Source: Synechococcus sp.
GTDB taxonomy: Bacteria > Cyanobacteriota > Cyanobacteriia > Thermostichales > PCC-7336
Length of the DNA: 34,294 nucleotides
Direction: 5' to 3'
NCBI GenBank assembly: GCA_051439425.1
Contig: JBFRWD010000149.1
Span: 1 to 34,294, forward strand
How positions within the stretch are numbered: position 1 is the first letter of the stretch; every line of letters begins with the position of its first letter. The notes under the pieces were generated by a model that saw only the letters and a list, made by a program, of their open reading frames with translations, was not told where the DNA came from and made no database searches. Made by a program: the position numbers and the translations under genes. Positions 1-19,450 of this stretch are shown one piece after another.

Positions 1-135
1 GGTCTTTGGTTGCTGGTAAAGGCGATCGCCTTTCTTACTTGGCACGTTCTGAGAATTACCTGGAAAGTATTTTGGGTCTTGTTTTTCGTCTTTTGCTTTC
101 AAAGTTTGTTTGGACGAGCGATCTCCAAAATCTAA
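1..135 (+). CDS. 3' end of a small hydrophobic (membrane) protein, partial
   Basis: Frame 1 is open from base 1 to TAA at 133-135 (GLWLLVKAIAFLTWHVLRITWKVFWVLFFVFCFQSLFGRAISKI*). It is strongly hydrophobic, contains a HIP1 site at 22-29 and is followed by a hairpin. Confidence 0.5.
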   Translation, partial: GLWLLVKAIAFLTWHVLRITWKVFWVLFFVFCFQSLFGRAISKI

Positions 136-146
136 ATCCTCTCGGC

Positions 147-183
147 AATGAACTTAGCCAGTTAGAAAGTGGCTAAGTTCATT
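147..183. terminator. Perfect 14-bp inverted repeat, probable terminator or RNA stem-loop
   Basis: AATGAACTTAGCCA (147-160), 9-nt loop, TGGCTAAGTTCATT (170-183), 11 nt after the upstream stop codon. There is no clear U-tract. Confidence 0.55.
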
Positions 184-551
184 CCTCAGAATCACGAATG
201 TGCCCCAGTCACAGCCAATATTGTTAAAACTGGCAAAGACTAAAATACTAATGACTCTACGCGAAGTAGTGGACATTTCAAAGACTGGCTTGGGTCTTCG
301 GCGTTTTACACTTTTATCCGTGAGATCAAGATCCTACAGTTTGTATGCGTTGGCCCTGCAACCCTGCTGCTCCTGTTGGCATACTTTGTGAACTGACCTT
401 TCCAGAACGTTAAAAAATGTAAAATTGGCGATCAATACCGAATCCTCGGCTGGTGAGCTCTGGTGAGTACTACCCAGAAATTGGAAACGAGACTGATACT
501 AACTAGAATCTACAAGGGAACCTTACTTTTCAAAGAGACCGAAGGTTTAGG

Positions 552-3104
552 ATGAGTCATTCTCGAGACAATCACCACCCTTCTCAACCCAAGCCAGTTG
601 GAATCTTCAAACTGTCTGAATATGCATCAGCTGGGGCATCTGTAGTCGGGACAATTGCTGCAGCGCTGACAAAGGAATTCCTATACGCAGCTACCCCTCT
701 TTCATTTTCACTATTTCTCAATCTGATAAGTCGGCAGCGACTTGAGAACCAATTTCGCAATAACGAACGCATTAACCTTCATTTAGAGGAGTCAGTTGCG
801 AAACTAGACAAAAGAATCAATGCCATGCAGCATGAGTGGTTGCCAGATCTGAAAACCGATCTCGCTAAAATTACTCAGAAACTAAACGATATTAATCAGT
901 CCAGAATCGATCCGGCGCTGAAGTCGAGAGAGATTGCTCAAGAACTACAGCAGCTAAAGAAACGGTTCGAACGTGAAATTGAATTGATTCGAAATTCATT
1001 ACTGGAGAGTCCTAAATTAAAAGAAGAAAGGCTGGATGCACTACTTCAGGTAGTCGATTCGCTCAAAGGTCAGATTTCCGCTATTGAAGACGACGTTCGG
1101 TCGGCTAGAGGGAGGGGAACGTTAGGGGAAACCTTTGATCGGAAGCTTGAAGAACTGAAAAAGCTTCTACAAATAGAGTTTCAGACCGAAATTGCAGATC
1201 GAATTGGTGCGAACGAAAGGGTAAGCCAAGTAGAACAGCAGTTACAGCAACTTCAAGTGTCTGTTCGAAATGACTTTGAGCGACTCAGACATGAACAGGT
1301 AGCCTTAAGGGAGAGCACTACACAACAACCATTTGATGAACTACAACATGCCCTCGAAAGTATCCGAGAAAGGCTTGAACGGATTGACTTGAGGGTAGAT
1401 AGTGAGGTAAGCGAGTTTCAAGAAAAACATAGTGTCTTCGAGGAAAATCTCGAGGGACTCAGACAGGAGTTCAAACAAGAACTTTCCAATATTAGGCTCA
1501 GAGCCGTAGAACAACTCAACGCTCTTCATCAACCGCAACTTCAAGAACTGAGAAGCTTACTTGATGAATTGCAATCGCGCTTAGATGCATACGAACCAGC
1601 AGGCTCTCAAGCACTGGGAATTCAGATTGAACCGTCAAGTCCGAATATCGAAACAATTTCCTCAGATCGTATCCTCATACCTGATGACATCTCTACATCC
1701 GTTGAAGAAGAGTGGGGAGATAGTAGCACTGGTTTCGCAGAGGCAACCGAGGATGTAGACGTTCTCGATCTCAATATAGGAATCGATTTCGGCACCCAGT
1801 TTACAAAGGCTTGTTTTCGAGACGTTGCGCAAGAACGTTCTGAAATTGTCAGTTTTGAAAAGAATGCATGCGATCTTGAGAGTGGCATGTTAACGAGCAA
1901 AGTTGGCATTCTAAATGATGGGACCTTGATTGCAGGGGTAACCGAAAAAGAATGGCAGAGTTATCAGTCAGATATTGGTCAACCGGTTGAATATATCAAG
2001 ATGCGCCTTGCATATCTTGATACACCTGATACCTTGGATGGATGGGAACTGGAGAGCATACCAGAACTAGAGGATCCAGAGGTTATAGAGAATATATGTG
2101 CTTATTTCCTCAGCCAAGTCATCTGTCGTACTCAAGAATGGATCGTTTCTAACAAAAAGGATTTGATCGTAAACCAGAAACTATATTGGACTGCAAACGT
2201 AGGAGTCCCCGTTGAATATAGAGATTCGAATGCCAAAGAAAGATTTGAGAAAGTTTTATCTCTCGCCTGGTTACTAAGTAATGAAGCCAAGACTGATCGT
2301 ATGCGGTTGGACAACCTTAAAGAGCGGATGATTTTCTTAAGGAAGAAATTGCAGGAAACAAAAGGAATTGACTGCCATGCAGTCCCTGAGATCGCGGCAG
2401 AAGTCTGGTCTTTCATTAACTCACGCCAAGTGGACGATGGTTTCTATATCCTCTTTGATATTGGTGATGGCACCCTCGACGGAAATGCATTTTATTATTG
2501 GCGAGACGAAGGTGAGCCCAGGGTAGATTTCTATAAGGCTATCGTAAAACCGTTAGGAGTTGCAGCGTTTATCCAACAACTCCAAGATGAACTCAAGCAT
2601 TCAGAGAATGCATATCGTCATTTACTATTTGGAGACTCTAATAGGATACCAATAAGAGTGAGCTCTAGCCAGTCATTCAAACGGATTCAGCAACTTGTGG
2701 CTCAAGTGGTTTTCAGAGGTGTCAAGGAATATAGAAGACATCATAAATGGGAAAGTGAGAGAGATTTAAAAGACCGCTTAAAGTTTTTCTTAGGAGGCGG
2801 GGGAAGTATAAGTAACTTATATATAGATGCAGTTAAGTCCACCCATAAAGATTTCAACCATCAGAGTTCAAATATCCCTGTATATCAACAGGTTTCAATA
2901 CCGTTTCCAGACGATTTGGAAGTCAATGGCTTGAGTCGAGATAAGTTCTATCGCTTTGCAGTTGCCTATGGGTTATCTATACCCCAAGGGGAAAGTGCTG
3001 AAGTTAGACTGCCTAGTGAAATGGAAAGTATTGAATACAACCGTACAGTTCTGAACTCCACCTATAATGTCGAGAATTACGATGATTCAAGAGGGAGTTG
3101 GTAA
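552..3104 (+). CDS. Membrane-anchored coiled-coil protein with a C-terminal actin/Hsp70 (ASKHA)-fold ATPase domain
   Basis: 850-aa ORF. N-terminal hydrophobic segment (ASAGASVVGTIAAAL...YAATPLSFSLFLNLI), about 290 aa of E/Q/L/K-rich heptad sequence, an acidic linker, then actin-fold motifs: phosphate-1 IGIDFGTQFTK (~aa 410), connect-1 VPEIAA, phosphate-2 LFDIGDGTLD (~aa 636), adenosine FLGGGGS (~aa 748) and connect-2 FAVAYGL. Confidence 0.8.
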   Translation: MSHSRDNHHPSQPKPVGIFKLSEYASAGASVVGTIAAALTKEFLYAATPLSFSLFLNLISRQRLENQFRNNERINLHLEESVAKLDKRINAMQHEWLPDLKTDLAKITQKLNDINQSRIDPALKSREIAQELQQLKKRFEREIELIRNSLLESPKLKEERLDALLQVVDSLKGQISAIEDDVRSARGRGTLGETFDRKLEELKKLLQIEFQTEIADRIGANERVSQVEQQLQQLQVSVRNDFERLRHEQVALRESTTQQPFDELQHALESIRERLERIDLRVDSEVSEFQEKHSVFEENLEGLRQEFKQELSNIRLRAVEQLNALHQPQLQELRSLLDELQSRLDAYEPAGSQALGIQIEPSSPNIETISSDRILIPDDISTSVEEEWGDSSTGFAEATEDVDVLDLNIGIDFGTQFTKACFRDVAQERSEIVSFEKNACDLESGMLTSKVGILNDGTLIAGVTEKEWQSYQSDIGQPVEYIKMRLAYLDTPDTLDGWELESIPELEDPEVIENICAYFLSQVICRTQEWIVSNKKDLIVNQKLYWTANVGVPVEYRDSNAKERFEKVLSLAWLLSNEAKTDRMRLDNLKERMIFLRKKLQETKGIDCHAVPEIAAEVWSFINSRQVDDGFYILFDIGDGTLDGNAFYYWRDEGEPRVDFYKAIVKPLGVAAFIQQLQDELKHSENAYRHLLFGDSNRIPIRVSSSQSFKRIQQLVAQVVFRGVKEYRRHHKWESERDLKDRLKFFLGGGGSISNLYIDAVKSTHKDFNHQSSNIPVYQQVSIPFPDDLEVNGLSRDKFYRFAVAYGLSIPQGESAEVRLPSEMESIEYNRTVLNSTYNVENYDDSRGSW

Positions 3105-3175
3105 TAGTAGGCATGAAATATTATTACTTCTAGCTAGAATCTAGAAGATGTTTAAAATATTAAATTCTTTGTAGC

Positions 3176-6100
3176 ATGAATGTAGGGGAAATGACTTCAA
3201 TGACATGGGACCCTAGTACCGTAAGTTTAGAAGTTCGTTTACGAGCCAATCCAGGGAAACGTGGACTGACTACAGGAAAGACGCGAACATCTGGAACTCG
3301 TTTACTCGTTCAGGTTCAATTTGGCCCTAACGAGAAATCCTATAAACCTTATCACTTACTTGAGCTATGCGGAGACCTAGAAGGAATACCTGCATTATTT
3401 GAAAACAATCGATTTTCCCCTCCAGATGAACTCAGAAGAATGCTTACTTTTGAGAAAGTTAAAGGATATCTGACAAATATCTATTACAGCATGGAATCGA
3501 GTAAAACAAACTTCTATGCCCATCAATTTAAGCCAGTTCTTAAGTTCTTAGAATCTCCAACTGGTCGTTTGCTGATTGCTGATGAAGTTGGTTTGGGTAA
3601 AACGATCGAGTCAATGTATGTTTGGAAAGAGTTGGTATCTAGGGAAGATGCGAGACGCCTTCTGATTGTATGCCCTGCTATCTTGAGAGAGAAGTGGCAG
3701 GATGATTTGAGAAATTATTTTAATATAAAAGCCGACCTTATCAATTCTCATCAGCTGCTGGAAAAGACCAAAGATGTATTGGAACTAGACAAACAACTAC
3801 CTTTTGCTTGCATTGTTAGCATGGAAGGTTTACGACCAAGTAAAAACTGGGACGACACCAGTGTCAATACATCAACAGCCCAACTCGCTCGTATACTTGA
3901 TAGTAACTCAGCCACTGATGATTTTGGTCTATTCGATCTAGCTATTATTGATGAAGCTCACTATATGAGGAATCCTTCAACTGCAACCCATCAGTTGGGA
4001 AAGTTGATTCGGGATTCTGCAAAACACCTTATCTTACTAACCGCTACTCCTATTCAAGTTCATAGTAGAAACCTCTACCAGTTACTAAGAATTGTCAGTC
4101 CAGAGGATTTCTTTAATGAATCAGTTTTTGACGATATGCTAGAAGCCAATAGGCCTCTAGTCGGAGCACTTCGGCATATTTGGAGTACCCCTCCAAATTT
4201 AGATCTAGCACAAAAACTGATGGCTCAAGCACTGAACTCTAAGTACTTTTCAGACAATCCCATTCTAAAAAATATATATCGTAAAATATCAAACGTAGAA
4301 ACAATTGATACTGATGAACTTGTCAGGATTGGATATAAGCTCGAGAGTTCTTCTTTAATCGGTCAGTATATCTCCCGCAGTCGGAAACGAGATGTTATCG
4401 CTAATCGAGTGGAGCGTTCTTCCCAAACCCTTAAAGTACAGTTCACTGCATTAGAGCAAGCAATCTACGGTCGCGTTACAGATGCGATGCGACAAAGGGC
4501 TAAAGGCCAAAAAGGTACATCCTTGTTTAGCCTCATCACTCGACAGCGGCAAATGGCTAGCTGTATGCCTGCCGCCCTTACTTCCTGGTCACAGCAGGGA
4601 ATTTTAGAGGATCTGGCCCACCAGGAGAGCATTCAGATGTGGGAAGACTTAGGGATTGCATCTAAACTCTCGGAGAACAATGCCTCTAAGCAGTCAGCAT
4701 TGAAGGATTGGACTTTTAAACTTGATTCAAAATCTATCTCTGAATTAAAACAGAACGACTCAAAATATAGAGAGCTTATTGCTTTTATTAGTAAAGAGCT
4801 AAGGAGAAACTCGTCCGAGAAGTTTGTATTATTCTCCTACTTTAAAGCAACACTCACTTATCTTCAGGAACGTCTTGCAACGGATGGCATTCTTTCTCAC
4901 GTGATTATGGGGGGAATGGGGGAAGACAAATGGGAAACTATTCATGCATTCCGGGAGGACGACACTCCAATCCTCCTGTCATCTGAAGTTGGTAGCGAAG
5001 GCATCGATCTTCAGTTTTGCCGCTTTTTGATTAATTACGACTTACCCTGGAATCCCATGCGCGTGGAGCAAAGAATTGGTAGGCTCGATCGCCTTGGCCA
5101 ACAGGCGGAACGGATCTCAATCGTTAATTTCAGCCAGGCAGATACGATCGAAGAGAGAATTTTGGAGCGCTTGTACGATAGGATTGACATTTTTAGGGAA
5201 AGTATTGGCGATCTAGAGATGATCTTGGGTGAAATGACTCAGAAACTGCTTGTCCCTTTGCTGGACCCAAATCTTACAGACATTGAAAGAGAAAAGAAGG
5301 CAGATGAAGCAACTACTGTTCTGTTAAAACAAAGAGAGGCACAAGAAAAGCTCGAGCGAGAGGCAGTTAATATGGTTGCATTTTCCGACCATATCCTAAC
5401 GGAGATATTGAAAAGCCGTGAACAAGGTAGGTGGCTACACCCGCAAGAAATGTATTATTTTATCGATGATTTCTTCGCCCGATACTATCCAGGTACAACG
5501 ATTGAACCCATAGATGCATCCAACTACTTGTTTACGCTCTCTCTATCTGAAGATGCAAAGGTTGACTTGGAAGATTACAGACAACAGAACTCTATTCGCA
5601 CTCCAACACTTCTGACTAAGTTTCCGGTAAGCTGCGGTTTCGATCCTAAAGCTTTTGAAACGCTACAAAAGCTTAGTAAGGTTGGTGAATTAATCGAACC
5701 AAGTCATCCTTTAGTGCAATGGATCGGTAATACATATACTGATAGTTCTAAGACATTTCATCCTGCAATTTCATCTCGCCTTGACTCCGCTCAAGCTGGT
5801 GTCTCTCCGGGACTTTACGTTTATACTATTCATCGTTGGGAATTTACTGGACTTAAATCGGAACGAAGGTTGGCTTACAAGGCTATTCAATGTAATTCCG
5901 GTGAAATGTTACCTGATAATATCTCCGAATCTTTTGTCAATGTAGTTTCGCTTCAGGGGCAAGACAGACCGAATGCTGCAAATCTTATTGAAGACATGGA
6001 TTCAGTACTATCTTTTTACGCTGATTGTGACGATTATCTTGAGGAATCCTTCGATCAATATTCTGAAGACTTTGAAACTGAAAATACCAATCGTTGTAAT

Positions 6101-6328
6101 GTTCAGCAACGCAGCGCAGAAGATTATGCTAATCGGAAGATAAAAGAGCTTGAAGAGCGTATTGAAAAGTATCGATCGCTGAACAATCAACGCATGATAC
6201 CCGCAACTCAAGGCTTATTAAATAAAATCAATAGAGAGTTAGAACTTAAAATTAGAAATATCAATCGCAGAAGAGATATTAGTCTAGATATGGAACGCTT
6301 ATCAGCCGGGATTGTACTGGTTGAATAG
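3176..6328 (+). CDS. SNF2/RapA-like SF2 helicase/ATPase
   Basis: 1050-aa ORF with LIADEVGLGKT (motif I), DEAH (II), TATP (III), SEVGSEGIDLQ (V), YDLPWNP and EQRIGRLDRLGQ (VI), and a C-terminal coiled coil. ATG 3191, after AGGGGA, may be the real start. Confidence 0.9.
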   Translation: MNVGEMTSMTWDPSTVSLEVRLRANPGKRGLTTGKTRTSGTRLLVQVQFGPNEKSYKPYHLLELCGDLEGIPALFENNRFSPPDELRRMLTFEKVKGYLTNIYYSMESSKTNFYAHQFKPVLKFLESPTGRLLIADEVGLGKTIESMYVWKELVSREDARRLLIVCPAILREKWQDDLRNYFNIKADLINSHQLLEKTKDVLELDKQLPFACIVSMEGLRPSKNWDDTSVNTSTAQLARILDSNSATDDFGLFDLAIIDEAHYMRNPSTATHQLGKLIRDSAKHLILLTATPIQVHSRNLYQLLRIVSPEDFFNESVFDDMLEANRPLVGALRHIWSTPPNLDLAQKLMAQALNSKYFSDNPILKNIYRKISNVETIDTDELVRIGYKLESSSLIGQYISRSRKRDVIANRVERSSQTLKVQFTALEQAIYGRVTDAMRQRAKGQKGTSLFSLITRQRQMASCMPAALTSWSQQGILEDLAHQESIQMWEDLGIASKLSENNASKQSALKDWTFKLDSKSISELKQNDSKYRELIAFISKELRRNSSEKFVLFSYFKATLTYLQERLATDGILSHVIMGGMGEDKWETIHAFREDDTPILLSSEVGSEGIDLQFCRFLINYDLPWNPMRVEQRIGRLDRLGQQAERISIVNFSQADTIEERILERLYDRIDIFRESIGDLEMILGEMTQKLLVPLLDPNLTDIEREKKADEATTVLLKQREAQEKLEREAVNMVAFSDHILTEILKSREQGRWLHPQEMYYFIDDFFARYYPGTTIEPIDASNYLFTLSLSEDAKVDLEDYRQQNSIRTPTLLTKFPVSCGFDPKAFETLQKLSKVGELIEPSHPLVQWIGNTYTDSSKTFHPAISSRLDSAQAGVSPGLYVYTIHRWEFTGLKSERRLAYKAIQCNSGEMLPDNISESFVNVVSLQGQDRPNAANLIEDMDSVLSFYADCDDYLEESFDQYSEDFETENTNRCNVQQRSAEDYANRKIKELEERIEKYRSLNNQRMIPATQGLLNKINRELELKIRNINRRRDISLDMERLSAGIVLVE

Positions 6329-6378
6329 CACTTCCCATCCTAAAGATATAGGTTTATTTGTTGGTTTTTACTTTTGAT

Positions 6379-6406
6379 TTGACACGAGTCTTTAGGACGC
6401 TAGACT
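6379..6406 (+). promoter_or_regulatory. Putative sigma70-type promoter for the SNF2-MTase operon
   Basis: TTGACA (6379-6384), a 16-bp spacer and TAGACT (6401-6406), with an AT-rich tract upstream, about 40 bp before ATG 6446. Confidence 0.45.
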
Positions 6407-6445
6407 TCACAGGATATAACAGGAATAGCTGGTTGCATCATCACC

Positions 6446-9310
6446 ATGTCGTCTTCAATTGCTCCTGGAGCCCGAATACTGTGTCGCGATGCAGAATGGT
6501 TTGTCAAGTCCACCTCGTACTCTTCTGATGGAAGTCGAGTGATTGAAGCTGTAGGAGTCTCAGAATTTATTCAGGGGCGACCGGCGCGATTTCTTGAAGA
6601 TCTCGAAGAGGACTTAGAGGTTCTCAGACCAGAGGAAACGAAGCTGATTTCCGATTCCTCCTCCGGGTACATTCATACTCTTTTGTTTTTGGATGCGCAC
6701 CTGCGACAAACTGCGCCGGATGACGAATCGATTTATTTAGGGCATCGGGCGGCGATGGATGCTTTGCCCTATCAGTTGGTGCCCGTATACAAGGCTCTGC
6801 AGATGCCGCGCCAACGCATCTTGATTGCGGATGCAGTCGGCTTGGGTAAAACGTTAGAGGCAGGAATCACGATCGCCGAACTGATCCGCAGGGGGCGGGG
6901 GCGGCGCATTCTGGTGGTGACCTCAAAAGCGATGATGGTCCAGTTTCAGAAGGAGTTTTGGAGTCGGTTCACGATTCCGCTCGTCAAGCTGGATTCAAGC
7001 GGTATTCAACGGATTCGGGCGAAGGTACCTGGGAATCATAATCCGTTTCACTACTACGATCGCGCTATCGTTTCGGTCGATACTCTCAAGCAGGATCGGG
7101 AATATCGCAGCTATTTGGAGCAAGCTTACTGGGACATCATCGTCATTGATGAAGCTCAGAATGTTGCTCGTCGCGGGAAGGGGCAGAGTGCTTCTCAACG
7201 GGCCAAGCTCGCTTCCCGTCTCGCAACTCGCTCCGATACGTTGATCATGTTGTCGGCTACACCACACGACGGCCGGCCGGAAAGCTTTGCCAGCCTGATG
7301 AATATGCTGGACCCGGCAGCGATCGCCAACGAGTCCGATTACAGCAAGGAGGACATTCGCGATCTTTACGTGCGCCGGTTCAAAAAGGATGTCTTGAAAG
7401 ACCTGCGCAAACACGTTCCCGAGCGTGAAGTCCAAGCCATTGAGGAATCCGCTTCTCCAGCGGAAGAACGAGTGTTCGAAACGCTGAACGAGCTTCAATT
7501 CAAAAGTATCGACAGTCGGCGCAAAAGCGGTCAACTGTTCAAGACCACGTTGCTCAAGGCGATGCTATCCAGCCCGGCTGCCTGTCTGGAGACGGTGACC
7601 AATCGCATCAAAACGCTGTCCAACAAAGAGAGCTTGGGAGCGGAGGATCGTCACGATATTGGCGAGCTGGAACGGCTGAAGGCCGATCTCGAGCTTATTA
7701 GTGAAGAGGATTTTTCCAAATATCGTCGCTTGCTCGCGCTAATCAGGGATGACTTTGGTTGGAAGGGACGAGATCGCACGGATCGGATTGTTATTTTTAC
7801 CGGTCGCAGGAAGACGCTGGCATTTCTCAAGGAGCATCTGGCGATAGACCTGAAGCTCAAGCCCGAAGCTATACAGGAACTCTACGGCACGATGCCGGAT
7901 GTGGATCAGAATCGCATTGTCGAGGAGTTCGGGCAGGAGAAAGCCAAGGTTCGCATTTTGATTGCGACGGAGGTGGCGTCTGAAGGATTGAACTTACACT
8001 ATCTCAGCCACAAGCTGATTCACTTCGATATTCCCTGGTCTTTGATGACGTTGCAGCAACGGAACGGTCGCATCGATCGCTACGGTCAGGAGCGCCAGCC
8101 GCTGATTCGCTATATGCTGACTCGCTCTCGGTTGGAGCGGATGGATGAGGTGGAGCGCATTATCAAGGTGCTACTGGATAAGGACGATCAGGCAATCAAG
8201 AATATCGGCGATCCGTCGGTGTTTATGGGGGTGTTCGATGCGGAGGCGGAAGAGGAGATAACGGCTGAGGCGATCGCTTCGGGGAAGAGTGCTGGGGAGT
8301 TCGAGCAGGAGTTGGATGAGAACGCCAGTTCCGGGGGAGAGTTCGATATTTTCAGTTGGTTTGAAGATGCGGATGACGAGTCGGAGGAACTGGAATTTGA
8401 CGAGCCGGTTAAGGGGGACATGCCGTCGATTTTTCCTTCGACGTTCAAGTTTGCTACTACTGCACTGTTGAGTTTGGAGCCTCCCCCTCAAAACTTGAAT
8501 ATCCGCGAAGAAGAGGGGCTGGTGGAGTTGAAGCTACCGGTGGAGATGGAACGGCGTTACAAGCGGCTTCCAAACGAAATTAAGCCCAAGCCGACCGAAC
8601 TATTGCAGTTGACCGATCGCCCCAGTCGGGTGATGCAGGCGATGGAGGCGGCACGGAGAGAGGAGAAGGCTTGGCCTGCGGAGCAGTATTTGTGGGAATT
8701 GCATCCGCTGACGGAATGGCTGACCGATCGCTGCTTATTTCGGTTCGGACGCCATCAAGCACCGACGATCGAGCTGGTGTCGGGGCTGGAGGAGGGAGAG
8801 GCAAGTTTCATTGTGTTTGGGAGTTTTCCCAATCGGCGGGGACGACCAGTGATTAATCGCTGGGTGACGGTGGTGTTTGAAGATGGAAAGTTTGCGAGGG
8901 TGGAACCTCTGAAGGAGACCCTGGAACGGACTCAGTTGGGTCGAATGGATATTCCCAATCCTGGGGAGCTGAATGTTGACGTGCTGCTGCCGTTGAGAGC
9001 TGCTGCTATTCGAGAAGCTCACCACTACCTGTTGGCCGAAAGAACTGCGTTCGAGCAGGTGTTACAACCGAAGTTTGAGGAACAGCAACAACGGCTGGAT
9101 CGATTGAAAGGGAGGCATGTCGAACAGTTGGAGTTGAGGTTTCAAGCTGACAAGCGAACTGGTGCTCTGAAGCAGCAGAAGCGGCAGAGAGATCTCAATC
9201 AGATTGAGAAAATTTTCAAGGATTACCGGGATTGGGTGGACCTTTCGATGACGACCGAAACGGAACCCTACATCAAGTTGGTTGCCGTTTTGCGGCATTC
9301 GAACAGTTAA
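6446..9310 (+). CDS. SNF2-family helicase, DrmD-like (DISARM-related)
   Basis: 954 aa with LIADAVGLGKT, DEAQN, SATPHDG, TEVASEGLNLH, FDIPWS and QRNGRIDRYGQ. The N-terminal PGARILCRDAEW is typical of RM-associated SNF2 proteins. It lies directly upstream of the large MTase. Confidence 0.9.
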   Translation: MSSSIAPGARILCRDAEWFVKSTSYSSDGSRVIEAVGVSEFIQGRPARFLEDLEEDLEVLRPEETKLISDSSSGYIHTLLFLDAHLRQTAPDDESIYLGHRAAMDALPYQLVPVYKALQMPRQRILIADAVGLGKTLEAGITIAELIRRGRGRRILVVTSKAMMVQFQKEFWSRFTIPLVKLDSSGIQRIRAKVPGNHNPFHYYDRAIVSVDTLKQDREYRSYLEQAYWDIIVIDEAQNVARRGKGQSASQRAKLASRLATRSDTLIMLSATPHDGRPESFASLMNMLDPAAIANESDYSKEDIRDLYVRRFKKDVLKDLRKHVPEREVQAIEESASPAEERVFETLNELQFKSIDSRRKSGQLFKTTLLKAMLSSPAACLETVTNRIKTLSNKESLGAEDRHDIGELERLKADLELISEEDFSKYRRLLALIRDDFGWKGRDRTDRIVIFTGRRKTLAFLKEHLAIDLKLKPEAIQELYGTMPDVDQNRIVEEFGQEKAKVRILIATEVASEGLNLHYLSHKLIHFDIPWSLMTLQQRNGRIDRYGQERQPLIRYMLTRSRLERMDEVERIIKVLLDKDDQAIKNIGDPSVFMGVFDAEAEEEITAEAIASGKSAGEFEQELDENASSGGEFDIFSWFEDADDESEELEFDEPVKGDMPSIFPSTFKFATTALLSLEPPPQNLNIREEEGLVELKLPVEMERRYKRLPNEIKPKPTELLQLTDRPSRVMQAMEAARREEKAWPAEQYLWELHPLTEWLTDRCLFRFGRHQAPTIELVSGLEEGEASFIVFGSFPNRRGRPVINRWVTVVFEDGKFARVEPLKETLERTQLGRMDIPNPGELNVDVLLPLRAAAIREAHHYLLAERTAFEQVLQPKFEEQQQRLDRLKGRHVEQLELRFQADKRTGALKQQKRQRDLNQIEKIFKDYRDWVDLSMTTETEPYIKLVAVLRHSNS

Positions 9311-9393
9311 AGTCAACTTCTTTGTCACCAAACTGGTGGCGGTGCCTCCTCCCGAGAGGCTTCCAAGTAGACATTGCCGATTAGGTGAAGAAC

Positions 9394-12300
9394 ATGGCCT
9401 TGGTGGGAATTGCGAACGAAAACGAGTTTTACTCGGCGCACTATCTGGATGCCATTCTGACGGCGGATTTGAAGGGAGTGGCCAAGCGATGGCAGGAGGA
9501 GGTCAAGGGGGCGGAGGAGAAGACGCCGGACAAGCAATTGTTGGGGTTGCGGCAGGAGTATTTTCGCTTGCGTGATCGCCTGGAGCGCCTGCGCGAGCCT
9601 GAGGCTCGGCTGGAGCTGCAGCGGGAGTTTTTGCAGCGGTTGCTGGCGGTGTTGGGGTACGACTGGCAGCCGCAACTGATGTTGATGGATGACGATACGG
9701 TGCTGCCGGTGGTGGCGGAGGTAACGCGCAGCAACGGAGTGCCGCTGCTGTGGGTGTTGGAAGCATTCAACCCCGAGTCTGAACCAGCAGATGCGCTGTC
9801 GCTGGAACTGGATGAAGTGCAGTATGCGGGACTGCCAGAGGTGGAGGGAGAGAGGCTGACGGGTCTGTCGGTGGAGGACGTACTTACCGACGCGGTATTC
9901 GCGCAGGAGAATCCTCCAAGGTGGGTGCTGGTAGCGAGTATCGACCAGGTGTTGTTGCTCGATCGCCACAAGTGGAATGCCTCGCGATTACTCCGATTCG
10001 ACTTGGTTGAGCTACTGGAGGAGCGGGATAGCAATGCGTTGTTGGCAGCGGCGACGCTGTTGCATCGGGAGCATACCTGTCCGCAGGAGGGGAGTGCCTT
10101 TCTGGATGATTTGGACGAGAACAGTCACCGCCATGCCTACAGCGTTTCGGAGGATTTGAAGTTTGCATTGCGGGAGGCGATCGAGCTGCTGGGGAACGAG
10201 GCGATCGCCTATCGTCGTCAGGTGAAGAAGGAGCGGGTTTTTTCGAGCAAAGAGCAACAGGAGAAGGGGGAGCGGGAGATCGATCCGAACCAGCTCAAGA
10301 TCGAGTGTTTGCGGTGGGTCTATCGGCTGCTGTTTGTGTTTTATATCGAGGCGCGGCCGGAGTTGGGCTACGCGCCGATGGGGTCGGATGTGTATCGGGA
10401 GGGATACAGCCTGGAGAGCTTGCGGGATTTGGAGCAGGCGGAGTTGCTGACGAGCGAGGACGAGGAAGGCTTTTATATCGATACCTGTATTCGTCGCTTG
10501 TTTCGACTGTTGTGGGAAGGGTATCCGGCGCAGAAGGAGAAACAGTTGGATTTGGCCGGTCAGTTGGAGGATGAGATTCACGATACGTTTCGGCTGCCAG
10601 CGCTGAAGAGTCACCTGTTCAATCCGGGGCGGACGCCGATGTTGAATCGGGTCAAGTTTCGCAATGCGGCGATGCGGCAGGTGTTGGAGTTGATGTCGCT
10701 GTCCCGGGAGAAGGGTAAGCAGAAGCGACGGGGGCGGATCAGTTACGCGCAGTTGGGGGTGAACCAGCTGGGCGAGGTGTACGAGGGCTTGTTGAGTCTG
10801 TCGGCCTTTTTTGCGGAAGAGGATTTGTACGAGGTGAAACCTGCCAAAGATCCGGAGGAGCGCAGCGAGTTGGAGGTGGGCTATTTCGTGCCGCAGTCGC
10901 GGCTGGACGAATTTAAGGCGGACGAGTTTGTGAAGGATTCGGTGACGGGGCAAAAGCCGCGCATGCATCGGAAGGGGAAGTTTTTGTTTCGACTGGCGGG
11001 ACGCGATCGCCAGAAGAGTGCCAGCTATTACACACCGCAGTCACTGACGGAATGTTTGGTGAAGTACGCGCTGAAGGAGCTGCTGAAGGACAAGTTGGCG
11101 GACGATATTTTGACGCTGACAGTGTGCGAACCGGCGATGGGGAGTGCGGCGTTTTTGAACGAGGCAATCGACCAGTTGGCGGAGGCGTATTTAGAGCGCA
11201 AGCAGGAGGAGACGGGGGAGCGGATTCCGCACGATCGCGTGGCGATTGAGAAGCAGAAGGTGAAGATGCTGCTGGCCGATCGCAATGTGTTTGGCATCGA
11301 CAAGAACCCGATCGCGATGGAGTTGGCGGAGGTTTCGCTGTGGCTCAACTGCATTTACCGCGATCGCATTGAGGTGGAGCAGGTTGACGGTAGGGGCAAT
11401 GCTTACAGGACCTATCGAGATGGGGATGTGTTTGTGCCTTGGTTTGGGTTGCAGTTGCACTGCGGTAATTCGCTGATTGGGGGGCGACGGCAGATCTATC
11501 GACGCGGGCAGGTGACGGGGCTGAAGAAGGGCCAGAAGCTGTGGCATGCGGTGGAGCCGGAGCGGGTGGTGTTGGGGGAGGCGTTGCCGGAGGATGGGAT
11601 TTTCCATTTCTTGTTGGGGGATACGGGGATGGCGAATTACACGGACAAGGTCGTCAAGGGGATGGAGCCGGAGGCGATCGCCCGCATTAAGGAGTGGCAG
11701 AAGGGGTTTGCAAAGGCTGCGCTGACGCAGGAGCAGGCGGATTATTCGGTGCAGTTGAGTCGGCGGATCGACAGTTTGTGGAGCGAGTATGCGGTGGAGT
11801 TGGGGAAGATCCGCGATCGGACGACGGATTCGCTGGCGGTGTGGGGGCAGGTGTCTGCTGGGGAGGAGCTGGAGACGGCTTTGGAGCAGAAGGACAAGAT
11901 TTACGCTCAGGAGAAGCTGTCGGAGGGGGTGAATAATGCGGGGGCTTACCGGCGGCTGAAGTTGGTAATGGACTATTGGTGTGCGTTGTGGTTTTGGCCG
12001 ATCGCGCGGGCGGAGGAAATGCCTTCTATGGAGCAGTTTTTGCAGGAGGTGGGAGCGATTTTGGGGGAGACGGAGATGTTGGCTCCCGCCGTGCAGCAGA
12101 TTCAGCTATTTCCAGAGACGCAGGAGGCTGAGCAGGGGGAGTTGTTTTTGCGCAGTTGGGGGTATGTCGATCTCGATAAGTTAAAGCTGTTGAGTCCCCG
12201 GCTGCAAATTGTTGAGGAGCTTGCGGAGCGGCATCGGTTTTTCCATTGGGAGTTGGAGTTTGCCGATATTTTTCGGGAGGAGGCTGGCTTTGATCTGATG

Positions 12301-14307
12301 TTGGGGAATCCGCCGTGGGTGAAGGTGGAATGGCAAGAAGGGGGGATTCTAGGGGATTACAACCCCGTGGTAGAACTGCAGAAGTTGTCGGCAAGTAAGT
12401 TATCAGCAATACGAGGGAGCTTATTTGAGCTTTATCCAGGACTGAGAAGCGCTTATTTTCAAGAGTTTGAGGAATCAGATGGCACTCAGAATTTCCTTAA
12501 TGCAGTTCAAAACTATCCTCTTCTAGAAGGACAAAAAGCAAACCTTTTCAAATGTTTCTTGCCACAAGCCTGGAAGTATAGCAAGGCTCAGGGAGTATCA
12601 GGTTTCCTACATCCCGAGGGGGTTTATGACGATCCGCGAGGCGGACTACTTCGTGCAACACTTTATCAATATTTACAAGCTCATTTTCAGTTTGACAATG
12701 AACTTCGTTTATTTAATGAGGTTCATCACGCAACCAAATTTAGTATCAACCTCTATAAGAAACCATCTAAGCTTTTTGAGGAAAAGAGTAGATTTGTCCA
12801 TCTTGCCAACTTGTTTACAGCAAAAACAGTCTTTGAATGCTTCGAAACATCATCGGAAAGGGTAATTCCAGGAATTAAAGATGAAGATGGGAAATGGGAA
12901 ACAAAGGGTCATCCTGTGAGAATTATTAGTGTCGATCTCTCAACACTTGATCTTTTTGCAAAGCTATATGGGGCGGACGGGACTTCTGCAATTGAGGCAA
13001 GACTACCAGCTATACATACTCAAAGCCTAGTTAGTGCTCTGGGCAAATTTTCTGGCCAGGGTAAGAAGTTATCAGTCGTTAGTTATTTCCCAACACCTTC
13101 AACATGCTGGAATGAAGTTAACGCGCAAAAGGATGGAACAATAAGAAGAGAGACGACAAGGCCTGAAAACACTCAACAGTTGATTTTCTCGGGTCCTCAT
13201 TTTTATGTGGGTAATCCTTTCTACAAAACCCCTAAGAGCGTTTGTCAATTAAATAGTGACTATAACGTCGTCGATTTAGGTGATATACCTGATGATTTTT
13301 TACCAAGAAGTAATTATATCCCTTCATGCTCTCCTTCTGAATATGAAAATCGTCTAACGATTGTTCCGTGGACATCTCAACAAACAGTAACTAATTTTTA
13401 TCGTGTTATTAGTCGCGAAATGCTCAGCCAATCAGGAGAAAGAACTTTTGTGCCTGCTTTGATTCCTCCTGGTGCAGCTAGCATTCATACATGTGTATCT
13501 ACGGTATTCAAAAATGTTCTGGATGCAATAGACTTTCTCTCAATGGGATTAAGTCTTTCTGTTGATTTTTTCGTTAAAACGACAGGTATGGGACACGCAA
13601 ATCACAATATTTTGCGTCTACTTCCCCTAACTCCTGAGAGCTTTTCCTTAAAACATCTACTTCGCCTACGTGCTCTTACCCTCAATTGCCTCACCACCCA
13701 CTATGCCGACCTCTGGGTCGACACCTTTGACCCCACCTTCACTCACGACACTTGGAGCAAACCCAACGATCCCCGCCTCGATCCCAACTTCTTCACCAAC
13801 CTCTCCCCCACCTGGCAACGCAACTGTACCCTCCGTACCGATTACGCCCGCCGCCAAGCCCTCGTCGAAATCGATGTTCTCGCCGCCCAAGCCCTCGGCC
13901 TCACCCTCGACGAACTCATCACCATCTACCGCGTCCAATTCCCCGTCATGCAGCAATACGAACGGGAAACCTACTACGACAAAAACGGCCGCATCGTCTT
14001 CACTACCAGTAAAGGCCTCACCGGCGTCGGCCTCCCCCGCAAAGGCAACAAAAAACAAGGCACTATCGGCTGGGAAGACGTCTACGACCCCACCACCCAA
14101 CAAGCCACCCAAGACCGCATCGCCATCCAAATCGAAGACGACACCCTACCCCCCACCGTCCCTCTCCGCCCCGGCGAACAGTGGCTCGGCGACGACGGCA
14201 AACGTCTGCGCACCATCGTCTACGAAGCCCCCTTCGTCAAATGCGACAGAGTCGAAGACTACCGCATCGCCTGGGCTCATTTCGAAGCTCGCGCATCTGA
14301 AATGTAG
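9394..14307 (+). CDS. Large N6-adenine DNA methyltransferase (type IIG/Eco57I/PglX/DrmMI-like)
   Basis: About 1637 aa; likely start ATG 9394 (MALVGIANENEFYS) after AGGTGA, while the track starts at GTG 9385. Motifs: LGEVYEGLL, SYYTP (X), CEPAMGSAAFL (I, SAM binding), FGIDKNP, GNSL, FFHWELEF and GNPPW (IV, catalytic), followed by a target-recognition region. Confidence 0.92.
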   Translation: MALVGIANENEFYSAHYLDAILTADLKGVAKRWQEEVKGAEEKTPDKQLLGLRQEYFRLRDRLERLREPEARLELQREFLQRLLAVLGYDWQPQLMLMDDDTVLPVVAEVTRSNGVPLLWVLEAFNPESEPADALSLELDEVQYAGLPEVEGERLTGLSVEDVLTDAVFAQENPPRWVLVASIDQVLLLDRHKWNASRLLRFDLVELLEERDSNALLAAATLLHREHTCPQEGSAFLDDLDENSHRHAYSVSEDLKFALREAIELLGNEAIAYRRQVKKERVFSSKEQQEKGEREIDPNQLKIECLRWVYRLLFVFYIEARPELGYAPMGSDVYREGYSLESLRDLEQAELLTSEDEEGFYIDTCIRRLFRLLWEGYPAQKEKQLDLAGQLEDEIHDTFRLPALKSHLFNPGRTPMLNRVKFRNAAMRQVLELMSLSREKGKQKRRGRISYAQLGVNQLGEVYEGLLSLSAFFAEEDLYEVKPAKDPEERSELEVGYFVPQSRLDEFKADEFVKDSVTGQKPRMHRKGKFLFRLAGRDRQKSASYYTPQSLTECLVKYALKELLKDKLADDILTLTVCEPAMGSAAFLNEAIDQLAEAYLERKQEETGERIPHDRVAIEKQKVKMLLADRNVFGIDKNPIAMELAEVSLWLNCIYRDRIEVEQVDGRGNAYRTYRDGDVFVPWFGLQLHCGNSLIGGRRQIYRRGQVTGLKKGQKLWHAVEPERVVLGEALPEDGIFHFLLGDTGMANYTDKVVKGMEPEAIARIKEWQKGFAKAALTQEQADYSVQLSRRIDSLWSEYAVELGKIRDRTTDSLAVWGQVSAGEELETALEQKDKIYAQEKLSEGVNNAGAYRRLKLVMDYWCALWFWPIARAEEMPSMEQFLQEVGAILGETEMLAPAVQQIQLFPETQEAEQGELFLRSWGYVDLDKLKLLSPRLQIVEELAERHRFFHWELEFADIFREEAGFDLMLGNPPWVKVEWQEGGILGDYNPVVELQKLSASKLSAIRGSLFELYPGLRSAYFQEFEESDGTQNFLNAVQNYPLLEGQKANLFKCFLPQAWKYSKAQGVSGFLHPEGVYDDPRGGLLRATLYQYLQAHFQFDNELRLFNEVHHATKFSINLYKKPSKLFEEKSRFVHLANLFTAKTVFECFETSSERVIPGIKDEDGKWETKGHPVRIISVDLSTLDLFAKLYGADGTSAIEARLPAIHTQSLVSALGKFSGQGKKLSVVSYFPTPSTCWNEVNAQKDGTIRRETTRPENTQQLIFSGPHFYVGNPFYKTPKSVCQLNSDYNVVDLGDIPDDFLPRSNYIPSCSPSEYENRLTIVPWTSQQTVTNFYRVISREMLSQSGERTFVPALIPPGAASIHTCVSTVFKNVLDAIDFLSMGLSLSVDFFVKTTGMGHANHNILRLLPLTPESFSLKHLLRLRALTLNCLTTHYADLWVDTFDPTFTHDTWSKPNDPRLDPNFFTNLSPTWQRNCTLRTDYARRQALVEIDVLAAQALGLTLDELITIYRVQFPVMQQYERETYYDKNGRIVFTTSKGLTGVGLPRKGNKKQGTIGWEDVYDPTTQQATQDRIAIQIEDDTLPPTVPLRPGEQWLGDDGKRLRTIVYEAPFVKCDRVEDYRIAWAHFEARASEM

Positions 14308-14403: not shown

Positions 14404-14865
14404 TTACTTCATCAAAGGCTTCAAGGGACTAAGAATCTCATAATAAGCATCCTTTAAAGCTTCGCGGGTAACCCGGTAATTTCCGCGCCTCTGCTTGTGC
14501 CGATTTCCTAAACTTTGAAAAGCCTGATCGAGAAGAACGGTGAACTCATCTTGGTTCTGACCCTTACCCAGAACTTCAGTATCTATTTCGATCCCGTACA
14601 GTCTGCCACTGTGTTTCCCGACGCGGGGATAAACATGCGAGCTAGCTGTATTGGCATCAGACTCTACTGAAGTATCCTCATTGCCAATGTAGGAAAACTC
14701 AATAGCAAAACGCTTTCTATCCTCATCAAGCTTCCCCCTTATCGCTTTAGGGACATCATAGGGAGAGAGCATCACCTGTCTTTCTCGCCCTCTAATAATC
14801 TCCATCCTGGGCTTTGCCTCATTCAGAGACAAAGGATCGAGACTCACCCACTTAGTAGCTTTCAT
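14404..14865 (-). CDS. Small hypothetical protein with a DUF2283-like beta-rich segment
   Basis: 153 aa. Its start overlaps the upstream stop (ATGA, 14862-14865), indicating translational coupling. The segment LDEDRKRFAIEF...GKHSGRLYGIEID resembles the DUF2283 pattern (YD.E.D.LYI.F...GR+vGIEI) by eye. Confidence 0.7.
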   Translation of the reverse strand: MKATKWVSLDPLSLNEAKPRMEIIRGRERQVMLSPYDVPKAIRGKLDEDRKRFAIEFSYIGNEDTSVESDANTASSHVYPRVGKHSGRLYGIEIDTEVLGKGQNQDEFTVLLDQAFQSLGNRHKQRRGNYRVTREALKDAYYEILSPLKPLMK

Positions 14866-15671
14866 GACTTAGACCTTTCCAGTAATAGTCCCACGTAGGC
14901 TGCGAAAGTAGAGATCTGCTTCTGAGTAGTTAGGTCGGCACTGATAATTGAATCGTTCCTACTATCGAGTACCACTACTCCCCAAGGTTGCCCCTTAACT
15001 TCGATTGGCATTCCTACAAACAAGCGAGATCTAGGGAGCTTTTTCTTTAACCACTTTACAGTGACGAAAGTCTCACCAGCATACACATTATAGTTTGCGA
15101 CAGTTGGGTTATTCGCTAGGTCGGGCAACCCCTGTACGAATATCACGCTCTGACCACTCCAAGCCTGACCAGCCACCCCTTCAGCATCATCACTGCGATC
15201 GGGAGCCTTAAAGTATGTCGAAGTATTGAGCGTCAAGTGACCCGAGCGCTCCACAGGCAGCAGCCACCCACCCCAAGGCCAAGCGCGCGCAACCAACCAA
15301 ACCCATGGATACGGTGTCCAACGAGAATACTTAAACAAAGTGACTCGGTGGTGATCGACGGGATCGTCCTTCCCATCAATAAAAACATCGTCCCTCAATC
15401 TATTCAGATAGCGATGGACGGTTTGCCACAGCCATGGCGGACCCAACTGACGCTTGATAATAGCAATCAGTCCTACAGCAAGAGTTAGAGCAACCAGCAT
15501 GAACCATGCTGTGTTCTGCAACCAAGCAACCAAATTTTGGTAGACCCCCCAGGAAAAGGCAGTTCGATCTGCCTTGAGCGTCGCCCCATAAGCAGTCACC
15601 AACAACCCCAATACAACCTGCAAAAAAGACAAGAACCCGTAAACACTTCCCCAAGACCTACGAATCGGCAT
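14862..15671 (-). CDS. Two-TM membrane protein with a C-terminal GAF-like domain
   Basis: 269 aa. Two hydrophobic helices (aa ~10-31 and ~55-72), then RVTLF, EGVAGQAWSGQSVIFV and LFVGMPIEVKGQPWGVVVLDS, which match GAF-domain signature segments. Confidence 0.75.
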   Translation of the reverse strand: MPIRRSWGSVYGFLSFLQVVLGLLVTAYGATLKADRTAFSWGVYQNLVAWLQNTAWFMLVALTLAVGLIAIIKRQLGPPWLWQTVHRYLNRLRDDVFIDGKDDPVDHHRVTLFKYSRWTPYPWVWLVARAWPWGGWLLPVERSGHLTLNTSTYFKAPDRSDDAEGVAGQAWSGQSVIFVQGLPDLANNPTVANYNVYAGETFVTVKWLKKKLPRSRLFVGMPIEVKGQPWGVVVLDSRNDSIISADLTTQKQISTFAAYVGLLLERSKS

Positions 15672-15778
15672 TCCACCCCCGTGACAGTGACTCTTTCGAT
15701 ATCGGAGACCAGAACTGGGCAGACTTAGAAAACCGCATTTGCAAATTGGCTCTGAAGCCAGCGCGACTCAGCCTAACT

Positions 15779-17581: not shown

Positions 17582-17709
17582 AGGTTATCAACGACTGCGA
17601 GCGACTTATTCGAATCACAGCATCGCGATGCCTCGCTTCCAGACAGTGCGGCCATTTGTGCTTTCAGAAGTCTATTGCCGCTAAAGCAAACAGACGACAA
17701 GCCAATGCT

Positions 17710-19194: not shown

Positions 19195-19450
19195 TTCCTG
19201 CACCTAACGTGACAATTCCCCGCAAAGAATATATTTAGTTTCAGAAAACTGTTCTTCATCCCTTTGAAAAGTTTCTCCGTCCTCAAAATGGAAGGGTTAA
19301 AGAAAATATTTCCTCTTGAGTCAATTTGCCCGTCGCTTGCCTCTATCTTCGCACTCCGAAGCATGAGTCTCTCGAACCCCACAGAATCTCACACAATCTG
19401 GGCACACTTTGGGCAATAAATATTTGATCGAGCTGCATAGCTCCCAACTC

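Follow-up and report, generated by a model that had tools for sequence, protein, structure and literature searches.

Which function could join an ATPase that resembles the nucleotide-binding domain (NBD) of Hsp70 to an SNF2-type motor in a cassette of only two genes? The question is raised by two genes on the plus strand of JBFRWD010000149.1, a contig of Synechococcus sp. (assembly GCA_051439425.1): gene 1 (P0001, 552..3104), which encodes a long-form Hsp70-NBD-like ATPase of 850 aa, and gene 2 (P0002, 3176..6328), which encodes a DrmD/RapA-type SNF2 ATPase of 1050 aa. The window that we analysed is the entire 34,294-bp contig, part of a 4.8-Mb cyanobacterial draft genome. An initial annotation, made from the DNA alone, had described the two genes as a candidate membrane-sensing anti-phage module, in which a membrane-tethered coiled coil positions an ATPase switch that recruits or activates a helicase. 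Here, we describe the pair as a conserved, co-evolving and mobile cassette in which both ATPases keep their catalytic motifs, and whose gene context makes an anti-phage or anti-plasmid role plausible.

Conservation and mobility of the gene pair

Relatives of gene 1 were found at 74 loci when one genome per species was scanned by pattern and tblastn, and in 64 of them a gene 2-like SNF2 gene (45–64% identity) adjoins the ATPase gene. The remaining ten loci include four that end at a contig edge (L043, L072, L073 and L074) and two fragments (L057 and L071); L032 holds the ATPase gene without any partner. At two loci (L052:8614-9987 and L054:3362-4798), the ATPase gene is preceded by one for a protein of 457–478 aa, whose homology to the SNF2 protein is confined to the C-terminal domain and which aligns with columns 785–913 of the SNF2 alignment (A3) at an hhalign probability of 98%, an arrangement that could represent a minimal two-gene form or a decayed one. 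At L068:7766-9985, a 739-aa SNF2 derivative retains both terminal domains but has its Walker A motif replaced and its second RecA lobe deleted. Across the 74 loci there is no conserved third gene, the next largest gene cluster occurring in nine.

The pairing was also seen from the side of the SNF2 gene. In 400 cyanobacterial genomes, all seven SNF2 proteins with at least 45% identity have an ATPase within 1.5 kb, and one SNF2 at 27% identity has none. In 400 alphaproteobacterial genomes, a 54% SNF2 homologue has the ATPase, two at 34–36% are each followed by a divergent ATPase-like open reading frame (ORF), one at 40% is cut by the end of its contig, and six matches at 30–33%, from five genomes, have no ATPase. 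Some of these genomes are of the same species as those of the ATPase scan, so the forward and reverse counts are not independent. Pairwise identities among the ATPases correlate closely with those among their SNF2 partners (r = 0.94 for 32 loci and 496 locus pairs), a value reached by none of 500 label permutations and to which the shared ancestry of the hosts adds. Adjacency in both directions and this correlation bear out the two genes as a conserved, co-evolving unit.

The pair is present in cyanobacteria, alpha- and gammaproteobacteria and a spirochaete, in two gene orders and two architectures. Long-form ATPases (700–1100 aa) carry an N-terminal hydrophobic hairpin and a coiled-coil stalk; they occur in Leptolyngbya- and Phormidesmis-like cyanobacteria, with their gene placed before that of the SNF2 protein. 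Short forms (~400–590 aa) are bare ATPases that begin at or near the phosphate-1 motif and are encoded after the SNF2 gene; their hosts are other cyanobacteria, Rhizobiales, Caulobacterales, Arenicellales and a spirochaete. L059 and L063 are short-form loci of Rhizobium or Mesorhizobium. Many homologous loci have no gap between the two genes, or an overlap, which in short-form loci is often one of stop and start codons. A profile of the ATPase domain, searched against 1.84 billion representatives at 50% identity, matched 2,956 of them at E <= 0.001, 2,205 at E <= 1e-10 and 904 at E <= 1e-30, with long forms making up about 19 of the best 150 representatives. Atlas neighbours of the ATPase are clusters named ‘hypothetical protein’, commonest in Pseudomonadota. 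Two further members of the ATPase family have other layouts: in P0031 (1454 aa) about 1,000 residues precede the ATPase domain, and in P0156 (718 aa) the domain is N-terminal and followed by a 300-aa C-terminal extension.

Most of the family thus consists of bare ATPases of 440–590 aa without hairpin or stalk. The two elements are confined to a cyanobacterial subgroup, so membrane sensing through the stalk, which the initial annotation had placed at the core of the mechanism, cannot explain how the pair works in general. Hairpin and stalk are probably a lineage-specific cyanobacterial localisation layer and not part of the core mechanism.

Base composition sets the pair apart within the window. 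G+C is 0.39–0.44 across positions 1-6000 versus 0.53–0.58 across 7001-12000. The HIP1 site (GCGATCGC) occurs 28 times in the window, compared with 0.73 times in shuffled sequence, and not once between 30 and 7318; at the density of about 1 per kb found elsewhere in the window, about six sites would be expected over the gene pair. The ORF list, G+C and HIP1 counts thus agree with the initial description of two co-oriented, AT-rich and HIP1-free genes 71 bp apart. Low G+C and the lack of HIP1 sites mark the pair as foreign in composition to its host, and it was probably acquired horizontally. In the intergenic spacer (3105..3175), consensus scans found no terminator-like site and a single weak promoter-like match (3113-3140), which does not rise above the shuffle background; nothing in the promoter and terminator scans exceeded that background, and a tRNA was likewise not found.

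The distribution of the family is patchy, with members in 5 of 60 relatives of this genome and in one of three genomes of the same genus. The pair was also found on three of 72,556 plasmids, with a plasmid-borne copy in the culturable Leptolyngbya sp. BL0902; on the plasmids it is annotated as ‘hypothetical protein’ and ‘SNF2-related protein’. One plasmid copy lies beside cas1d and cas2 of a type I-D CRISPR-Cas system and transposases, and another beside toxin-antitoxin genes. In viral contigs, none of 59 pattern matches was confirmed by tblastn.

The Hsp70-like ATPase and its SNF2 partner

Domain scans of the window with Pfam and PADLOC took in its 12 large ORFs. For gene 1, they returned no PADLOC family and no Pfam domain above cut-off, with NCBIfam giving coiled-coil noise only; against PDB sequences, gene 1 matched only apolipoprotein and myosin, at E values of at least 0.15. 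A word-indexed search of 5.8 billion clusters yielded 14 homologues and one weak match, which are unnamed, called ‘hypothetical’ or, in one case, named as a coiled-coil protein. Their alignment has a conserved hydrophobic N-terminus, a gap-rich and poorly conserved middle and a strongly conserved C-terminal domain.

This C-terminal domain (aa 405–835; 1764..3056, plus strand) is, according to its AlphaFold2 model and structural comparisons, an ATPase of the ASKHA fold, nearest to the NBD of Hsp70. The initial annotation had read here a complete set of actin-fold ATPase motifs with no Hsp70 substrate-binding domain, and had singled out residues 400–850 for a fold search. The model, built from a 40-sequence alignment (pLDDT 89.4, pTM 0.89), led Foldseek to Hsp70-type NBDs, the best PDB matches being those of DnaK, BiP and Hsp72 (E ~1e-12, TM 0.45–0.54, 13–14% identity). 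Structure alignment with VIA placed Sse1/Hsp110 (Z 24.5) and BiP (Z 24.0) at the top, with 326–332 residues aligned; among actin-type folds it gave BeeR 21.5, MreB 19.5, FtsA 18.8, ParM ~17 and actin and actin-related proteins (Arps) ~16. In the alignment of the gene 1 homologues, the motifs GIDFGTxxTK and IKMRL are invariant and PEI, DxGxGTxDG and GGGG nearly so, with the fuller forms IKMRLA, PEIAAE and FDIGDGTLDG in the ATPase domain. Little or no variation was seen in the homologue alignments at D412 and K419 (both phosphate-1), K483, E613 or D636, or in GGGG. We name the motifs phosphate-1, phosphate-2, connect and adenosine after their presumed counterparts in Hsp70. Pfam PF00012 did not match the C-terminal 456 residues of gene 1, nor did any Pfam family at E <= 10, and in one related Atlas cluster PF00012 is found in 12% of members. 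Gene 1 stops 15 residues past the ATPase domain, and it therefore has no substrate-binding domain; fold and motifs both agree with the initial reading. The short C-terminal tail (3057..3101, plus strand) has a conserved Y-x-D motif in the alignment consensus lines and a pLDDT below 50 in the monomer model.

The fold is common to ParM, AlfA, Alp7A, MreB and BeeR (Z 15–21), and the pair could be pictured as an element-maintenance device, with an actin-like, filament-forming ATPase and an SNF2 motor serving plasmid or element partitioning or DNA handling. The three plasmid copies and a TraI-like helicase with DUF3854 and Toprim domains in the window would suit this picture. We nevertheless consider it very improbable: Hsp70/Hsp110 NBDs score Z 24–24.5 against 16–18 for ParM-type actins, no adaptor or centromere-binding gene is conserved, and only those 3 of 72,556 plasmids carry the pair, most copies being chromosomal and none being found in viral contigs.

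Three segments precede the ATPase domain on the plus strand of gene 1. The first is the N-terminal hydrophobic hairpin (aa 22–59; 615..728), with a conserved motif, EYxSxAASVVGxxxxAL..YAAxPLSxSLxLNLxxRxR, that is kept in all long-form homologues; short forms lack the hairpin. Its Kyte-Doolittle maximum (19-residue mean) is 1.2 in gene 1 and 1.3–1.9 in homologues, borderline for a transmembrane segment, so that a role as membrane anchor is plausible. The second is the coiled-coil stalk (aa 62–350; 735..1601), which has heptad periodicity with a score of 0.49 versus 0.27 +/- 0.03 in shuffles, none of 200 shuffles scoring as high, and in which 12 of 289 residues are Pro or Gly. Its sequence is poorly conserved, and the segment ahead of the ATPase domain ranges from 255 to 695 aa among homologues. 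The third is an acidic, Pro/Ser-rich linker (aa 351–404; 1602..1763), where the alignment is gapped and variable and Pro and Gly counts rise. Of the transmembrane anchor and coiled coil of ~290 aa proposed at first, the coiled coil is supported by the heptad score, whereas the anchor stays borderline.

Gene 2 carries the Pfam domains SNF2-rel_dom, Helicase_C and ResIII, and Pfam detects no nuclease domain in it, in line with what had been noted at first. The PADLOC DrmD model PDLC02623 matches it end to end (E 1.4e-293, 974 bits), and NCBIfam DISARM_DrmD (NF038317) matches residues 69–1035 at 439.7 bits, below the cut-off of 610. All five other partner SNF2 proteins that were scanned match PDLC02623 at 913–1033 bits, and their ATPase partners match nothing; judged by these scores, the PADLOC ‘DrmD’ model PDLC02623 is in effect a model of the SNF2 subfamily of gene 2. 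The initial annotation had set gene 2 apart from a DrmD-like SNF2 protein encoded downstream. This distinction holds only at the subfamily level (~28% identity over 206 aa), as gene 2 also matches a PADLOC DrmD model over its full length.

In the AlphaFold2 model of gene 2 (43 sequences, pLDDT 75.5), a beta-barrel at the N-terminus is followed by two RecA lobes, which hold a helical insertion, and then by an alpha/beta C-terminal domain and a long hairpin of helices; all four parts are encoded on the plus strand. The beta-barrel (aa 9–64; 3200..3367), whose strands span residues 19–64 in the model with pLDDT 83–89, has a highly conserved sequence, WNPxxxGQxVRLxxNPGxRGxTTG. In the SNF2 motor core (aa about 115–700; 3518..5275), assigned from motifs and VIA, the Walker A GLGKT (with K142), DEAH, TATP and QRIGR motifs are invariant in 43 sequences of the gene 2 family; VIA alignment of residues ~98–700 ranked ZorD (Z 19.5), CHD4 (18.6) and INO80 (18.4) highest. 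The C-terminal domain and long helical hairpin (aa 745–1050; 5408..6325) appear RapA_C-like, as language-model features of this region point to Atlas clusters carrying PF12137 RapA_C (score 0.96) and as the alignment to RapA suggests; Pfam does not detect RapA_C in gene 2.

Among solved sequences, E. coli RapA is nearest to gene 2 (E 2.9e-28), and RapA chain 4s20_K is the sole structure that aligns along the whole of gene 2 (775 residues spanning 67..1046, Z 17.4, rmsd 11.5), although identity in this alignment is only about 15%. Gene 2 was rejected as a RapA at equivalog level, as its 157.3 bits on NF003426 lie far below the cut-off of 576. RapA is known to act on RNA polymerase by itself, and an Hsp70-like partner gene is not known for it.

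This likeness raises the alternative of a non-defence accessory, in which a RapA-like remodeller and an Hsp70-like co-factor would, for example, recycle stalled RNA polymerase under stress, membrane-anchored in some cyanobacteria. Such a role would draw on the RapA match, the whole-chain alignment and the RapA_C-like C-terminus, as well as on housekeeping flanks at many long-form loci. We regard it as quite unlikely, given the low RapA equivalog score, the occurrence in 5 of 60 relatives only, the carriage on plasmids, the foreign composition in the window and the recurrence of the pair beside defence systems.

Genomic neighbourhood and known defence systems

No named system in PADLOC v2.0.0 holds the ATPase, and no model matches it, in agreement with the initial annotation, which had recognised no named system with this pair. 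Full-text literature searches likewise found no description of an SNF2 and Hsp70-NBD pair, with subscription journals, DefenseFinder and newer PADLOC releases outside this coverage.

DISARM class 1 resembles the pair in that gene 2 matches the PADLOC DrmD model PDLC02623 over its full length, the NCBIfam DrmD score staying below cut-off, and in that both occur in defence islands. However, no conserved association with the pair was seen for DrmA, DrmB, DrmC or DrmMI, and for this reason it was rejected as a DISARM member; DrmB and DrmC lie near one locus (L038), and the 12 large ORFs of the window contain no PLD domain of the kind found in DrmC. The type IIG/PglX-like gene of the window lies behind another SNF2 gene and is compositionally unlike the pair. 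An Hsp70-like partner is not a known component of DISARM.

Zorya type I had been offered as an analogy in the initial annotation. A membrane-anchored helical tail combined with an SNF2 protein is a shared idea, and ZorD is the top structural match of the motor core. Yet the ZorD equivalog scores gene 2 at 29.3 bits against a cut-off of 1500 (the DpdE equivalog also stays far below its cut-off), PADLOC ZorD matches the motor core only (E 3e-16), and no PADLOC match to ZorA, ZorB or ZorC was found in the 12 large window proteins, the smaller ORFs being outside the scan. In contrast to Zorya, the pair has no Mrr-like nuclease; where it has a stalk, which most family members do not, this belongs to an ATPase instead of an ion-channel stator. 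Since ZorA, ZorB and ZorC are lacking among the large window proteins and ZorD membership fails, the pair was rejected as Zorya, and the analogy does not extend to membership.

An SNF2 motor together with an ASKHA-fold ATPase is also found in the eukaryotic remodellers INO80, SWR1 and SWI/SNF, which contain actin and Arps. Arp4, Arp7/9, Arp8 and actin align to the gene 1 model at Z 15–16; actin is nevertheless a more distant match of the model than Hsp70, an HSA helix was not identified, and the likeness is an analogy only. The plant SNF2 remodeller PICKLE reportedly works with J-proteins and Hsp70, and a nuclease-fused Snf2 defence protein is said to be the topic of one published paper (PMC11232893).

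Among predicted defence systems, CoCoNuT also holds an Hsp70-like ATPase, CnuD (or CnuCD), together with coiled coils (PMC11090510). CnuD is described with both an NBD and a substrate-binding domain, with degenerate Walker-like motifs and with McrB-like GTPases and McrC as partners (PMC11090510). Compared with this description, gene 1 is an NBD alone with intact catalytic motifs and an SNF2 partner. McrB- or McrC-like matches were found neither in the 12 large window ORFs (Pfam and PADLOC) nor in 183 flanking proteins of homologous loci (PADLOC, 20 also by Pfam). The lack of an McrBC partner and the solitary NBD with intact motifs argue that the pair is not CoCoNuT. GTPase-centric systems with HSP70 (PMC7159879) and a BREX survey (PMC12839542) are also among the nearest published items.

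The 183 flanking proteins were compared with PADLOC at E <= 1e-15, about 28 picked proteins being left out, and defence context was listed for genes no more than three from the pair. Short-form loci lie near CBASS together with DrmB and DrmC (L038), near SspH and SspA (L050), or near a type III methyltransferase and an HKD-Snf2 protein (L063-65); PDC-S68 was found at L059, L063-65 and L069, and other short-form loci have a retron-type reverse transcriptase or MADS-like or Mokosh-like proteins. At L059:135-11329, HmaB (a DUF1156-type methylase) and HmaC (a DUF499 ATPase) are followed after 5 nt by a PDLC02623-type SNF2 gene, the ATPase gene and then PDC-S68. This SNF2 protein scores 949 bits on PDLC02623 and has no HmaA match at E <= 1e-60; membership in Hma was rejected, HmaB and HmaC flanking the pair at L059 only. 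Long-form loci have fewer defence genes, among them pAgo with PDC-M03 (L015), a TIR-like ThsB (L012), PDC-S70 and PDC-S17. In three related cyanobacterial loci (L021, L025 and L027, about 4500-9900), a 1400-aa DpdE/ZorD-like SNF2 gene stands immediately upstream of the pair, followed by a Fic/SoFic-like protein (L021 and L025) or a Rieske protein (L027); L030 has the Fic-like protein only.

Within the window, the genes downstream of the pair identify a defence island by Pfam and PADLOC, with the pair at its head, as first described. A second SNF2 gene (PDLC02621/BrxHII-like) and a gene for a 1640-aa type IIG/PglX-like methyltransferase (together 6446..14307, plus strand, from domain scans) carry HIP1 sites and higher G+C, unlike the pair. 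About 7 kb past the methyltransferase, positions 21576-30098 encode a 2125-aa YprA/DruE-like helicase (DEAD, MZB/DUF1998 and an HNH-like C-terminus) and a UvrD/GajB-like helicase. In domain content, these two regions match ArmA-D of ARMADA as described in PMC12458937, the first of them ArmA and ArmB; the paper also notes a reversed gene order of ARMADA in cyanobacteria.

The ARMADA-like set appears to be split by inserted genes. On its minus strand, the region between the two halves (14404-21415) has two unassigned ORFs (153 and 269 aa) and a gene for a GIY-YIG protein (17710-19203); it also encodes a TerB-DUF726 protein (15746-17581) and a GmrSD-type type IV restriction enzyme (19409-21415; PADLOC HEC-05). 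Towards the end of the contig, a minus-strand gene (30213-33461) encodes a 1082-aa protein with AAA_30, TraI helicase-associated, DUF3854 and Toprim domains, which resembles a relaxase or primase-helicase. The whole 34-kb contig may be part of a plasmid or integrative element.

Such neighbours raise the possibility that the pair is non-autonomous, an exchangeable helicase-plus-regulator add-on that supplies the SNF2 subunit to methylation-based multi-gene systems (DISARM class 1, ARMADA, Hma or BREX-like). PADLOC indeed files this SNF2 subfamily as DrmD, in the window and in all five partners scanned; the SNF2 gene of L059 begins 5 nt past HmaC, in the slot expected for the Hma helicase; DrmB and DrmC lie near the L038 pair; and ArmA/ArmB-like genes adjoin the pair in the window, as do an ArmA-like (PDLC02621-type) SNF2 gene and a YprA-like helicase in L044. 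Against this, few of the 64 paired loci have neighbours of this kind, a conserved third gene is lacking, the surroundings of the pair are free of methyltransferase and YprA helicase genes at many loci and on two small plasmids, and the pair and the ARMADA-like genes differ in composition within the window. We therefore judge an add-on of this kind to be unlikely.

Proposed mechanism and significance

The reading that we favour, and hold to be somewhat probable, is that of a horizontally mobile, defence-type cassette composed of an SNF2 effector and an Hsp70-like NBD regulator. Such a cassette would combine a RapA/DrmD-type SNF2 DNA-translocating ATPase with a dedicated Hsp70-NBD-fold ATPase that has no peptide-binding domain and that may act on the SNF2 protein as a switch or clamp driven by nucleotide. 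The most likely site of contact would be the RapA_C-like C-terminal domain of the SNF2 protein, because this is the only part kept in the reduced partners at L052 and L054. Complex prediction for the ATPase domain (residues 5–440 of the ATPase alignment, A2) and SNF2 residues 690–1050 (A3), with the conserved ATPase tail and the N-terminal half of the SNF2 protein outside the modelled part, scored 0.00, 0.31 and 0.00, the mark being 0.32, and speaks neither for binding nor against it. The SNF2 motor would be the effector, moving on invader DNA and stripping or stalling proteins such as RNA polymerase or replication proteins; stripping or stalling is proposed rather than cutting because a nuclease domain is undetectable. 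Alternatively, the SNF2 protein may work with neighbouring restriction-type systems. In Leptolyngbya-like cyanobacteria, including this genome, the ATPase would have gained the hairpin and a stalk of variable length, which probably hold the machine at the membrane.

Several observations weigh against a defence-type cassette. Neither a nuclease nor another classical effector was found, and a methyltransferase within three genes is absent from most loci, so that a means of telling self from non-self is not evident. Many long-form loci have housekeeping flanks, with genes for a glycosyl hydrolase, an SDR protein, a metallophosphoesterase, an ABC permease or a Rieske protein. As raw PADLOC counts, the hits in the flanks do no more than suggest an enrichment of defence genes beside the pair. 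The RapA-like architecture would fit a transcription-related housekeeping role, too. We infer the contact through the C-terminal domain from gene content only, and the gene 1 hairpin is a putative inserted membrane segment of borderline hydropathy (1.2).

A more far-reaching version of the defence-type cassette, which we put forward tentatively and regard as doubtful, is an obligate, nuclease-free machine of two motors that would be new to prokaryotic immunity, and in which the Hsp70/actin-fold ATPase would physically gate the RapA-like SNF2 protein, the latter evicting or stalling proteins on foreign DNA. It would be a bacterial functional counterpart of eukaryotic SNF2-actin/Arp or SNF2-Hsp70 assemblies, and in some cyanobacteria it would hang from the membrane on a tunable stalk.

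Defence islands were known to hold SNF2 proteins, and predicted defence systems to hold Hsp70-like proteins; an obligate pairing of the two was not found in the literature searched. DISARM, BREX, Zorya, ARMADA, Dpd and Hma all include SNF2 helicases, whose control is poorly understood. The SNF2 subfamily of gene 2 has a single dedicated partner, of a fold not earlier linked with it, and about 900 representatives of this partner at 50% identity (E <= 1e-30) are annotated as just ‘hypothetical protein’. A two-gene system of this kind could reveal what turns an SNF2 motor on when foreign DNA is met. It would also place the PADLOC ‘DrmD’ model PDLC02623 in its true context, and would provide a prokaryotic case in which an SNF2 motor is coupled to an actin-fold ATPase, as is known from eukaryotic chromatin remodellers.

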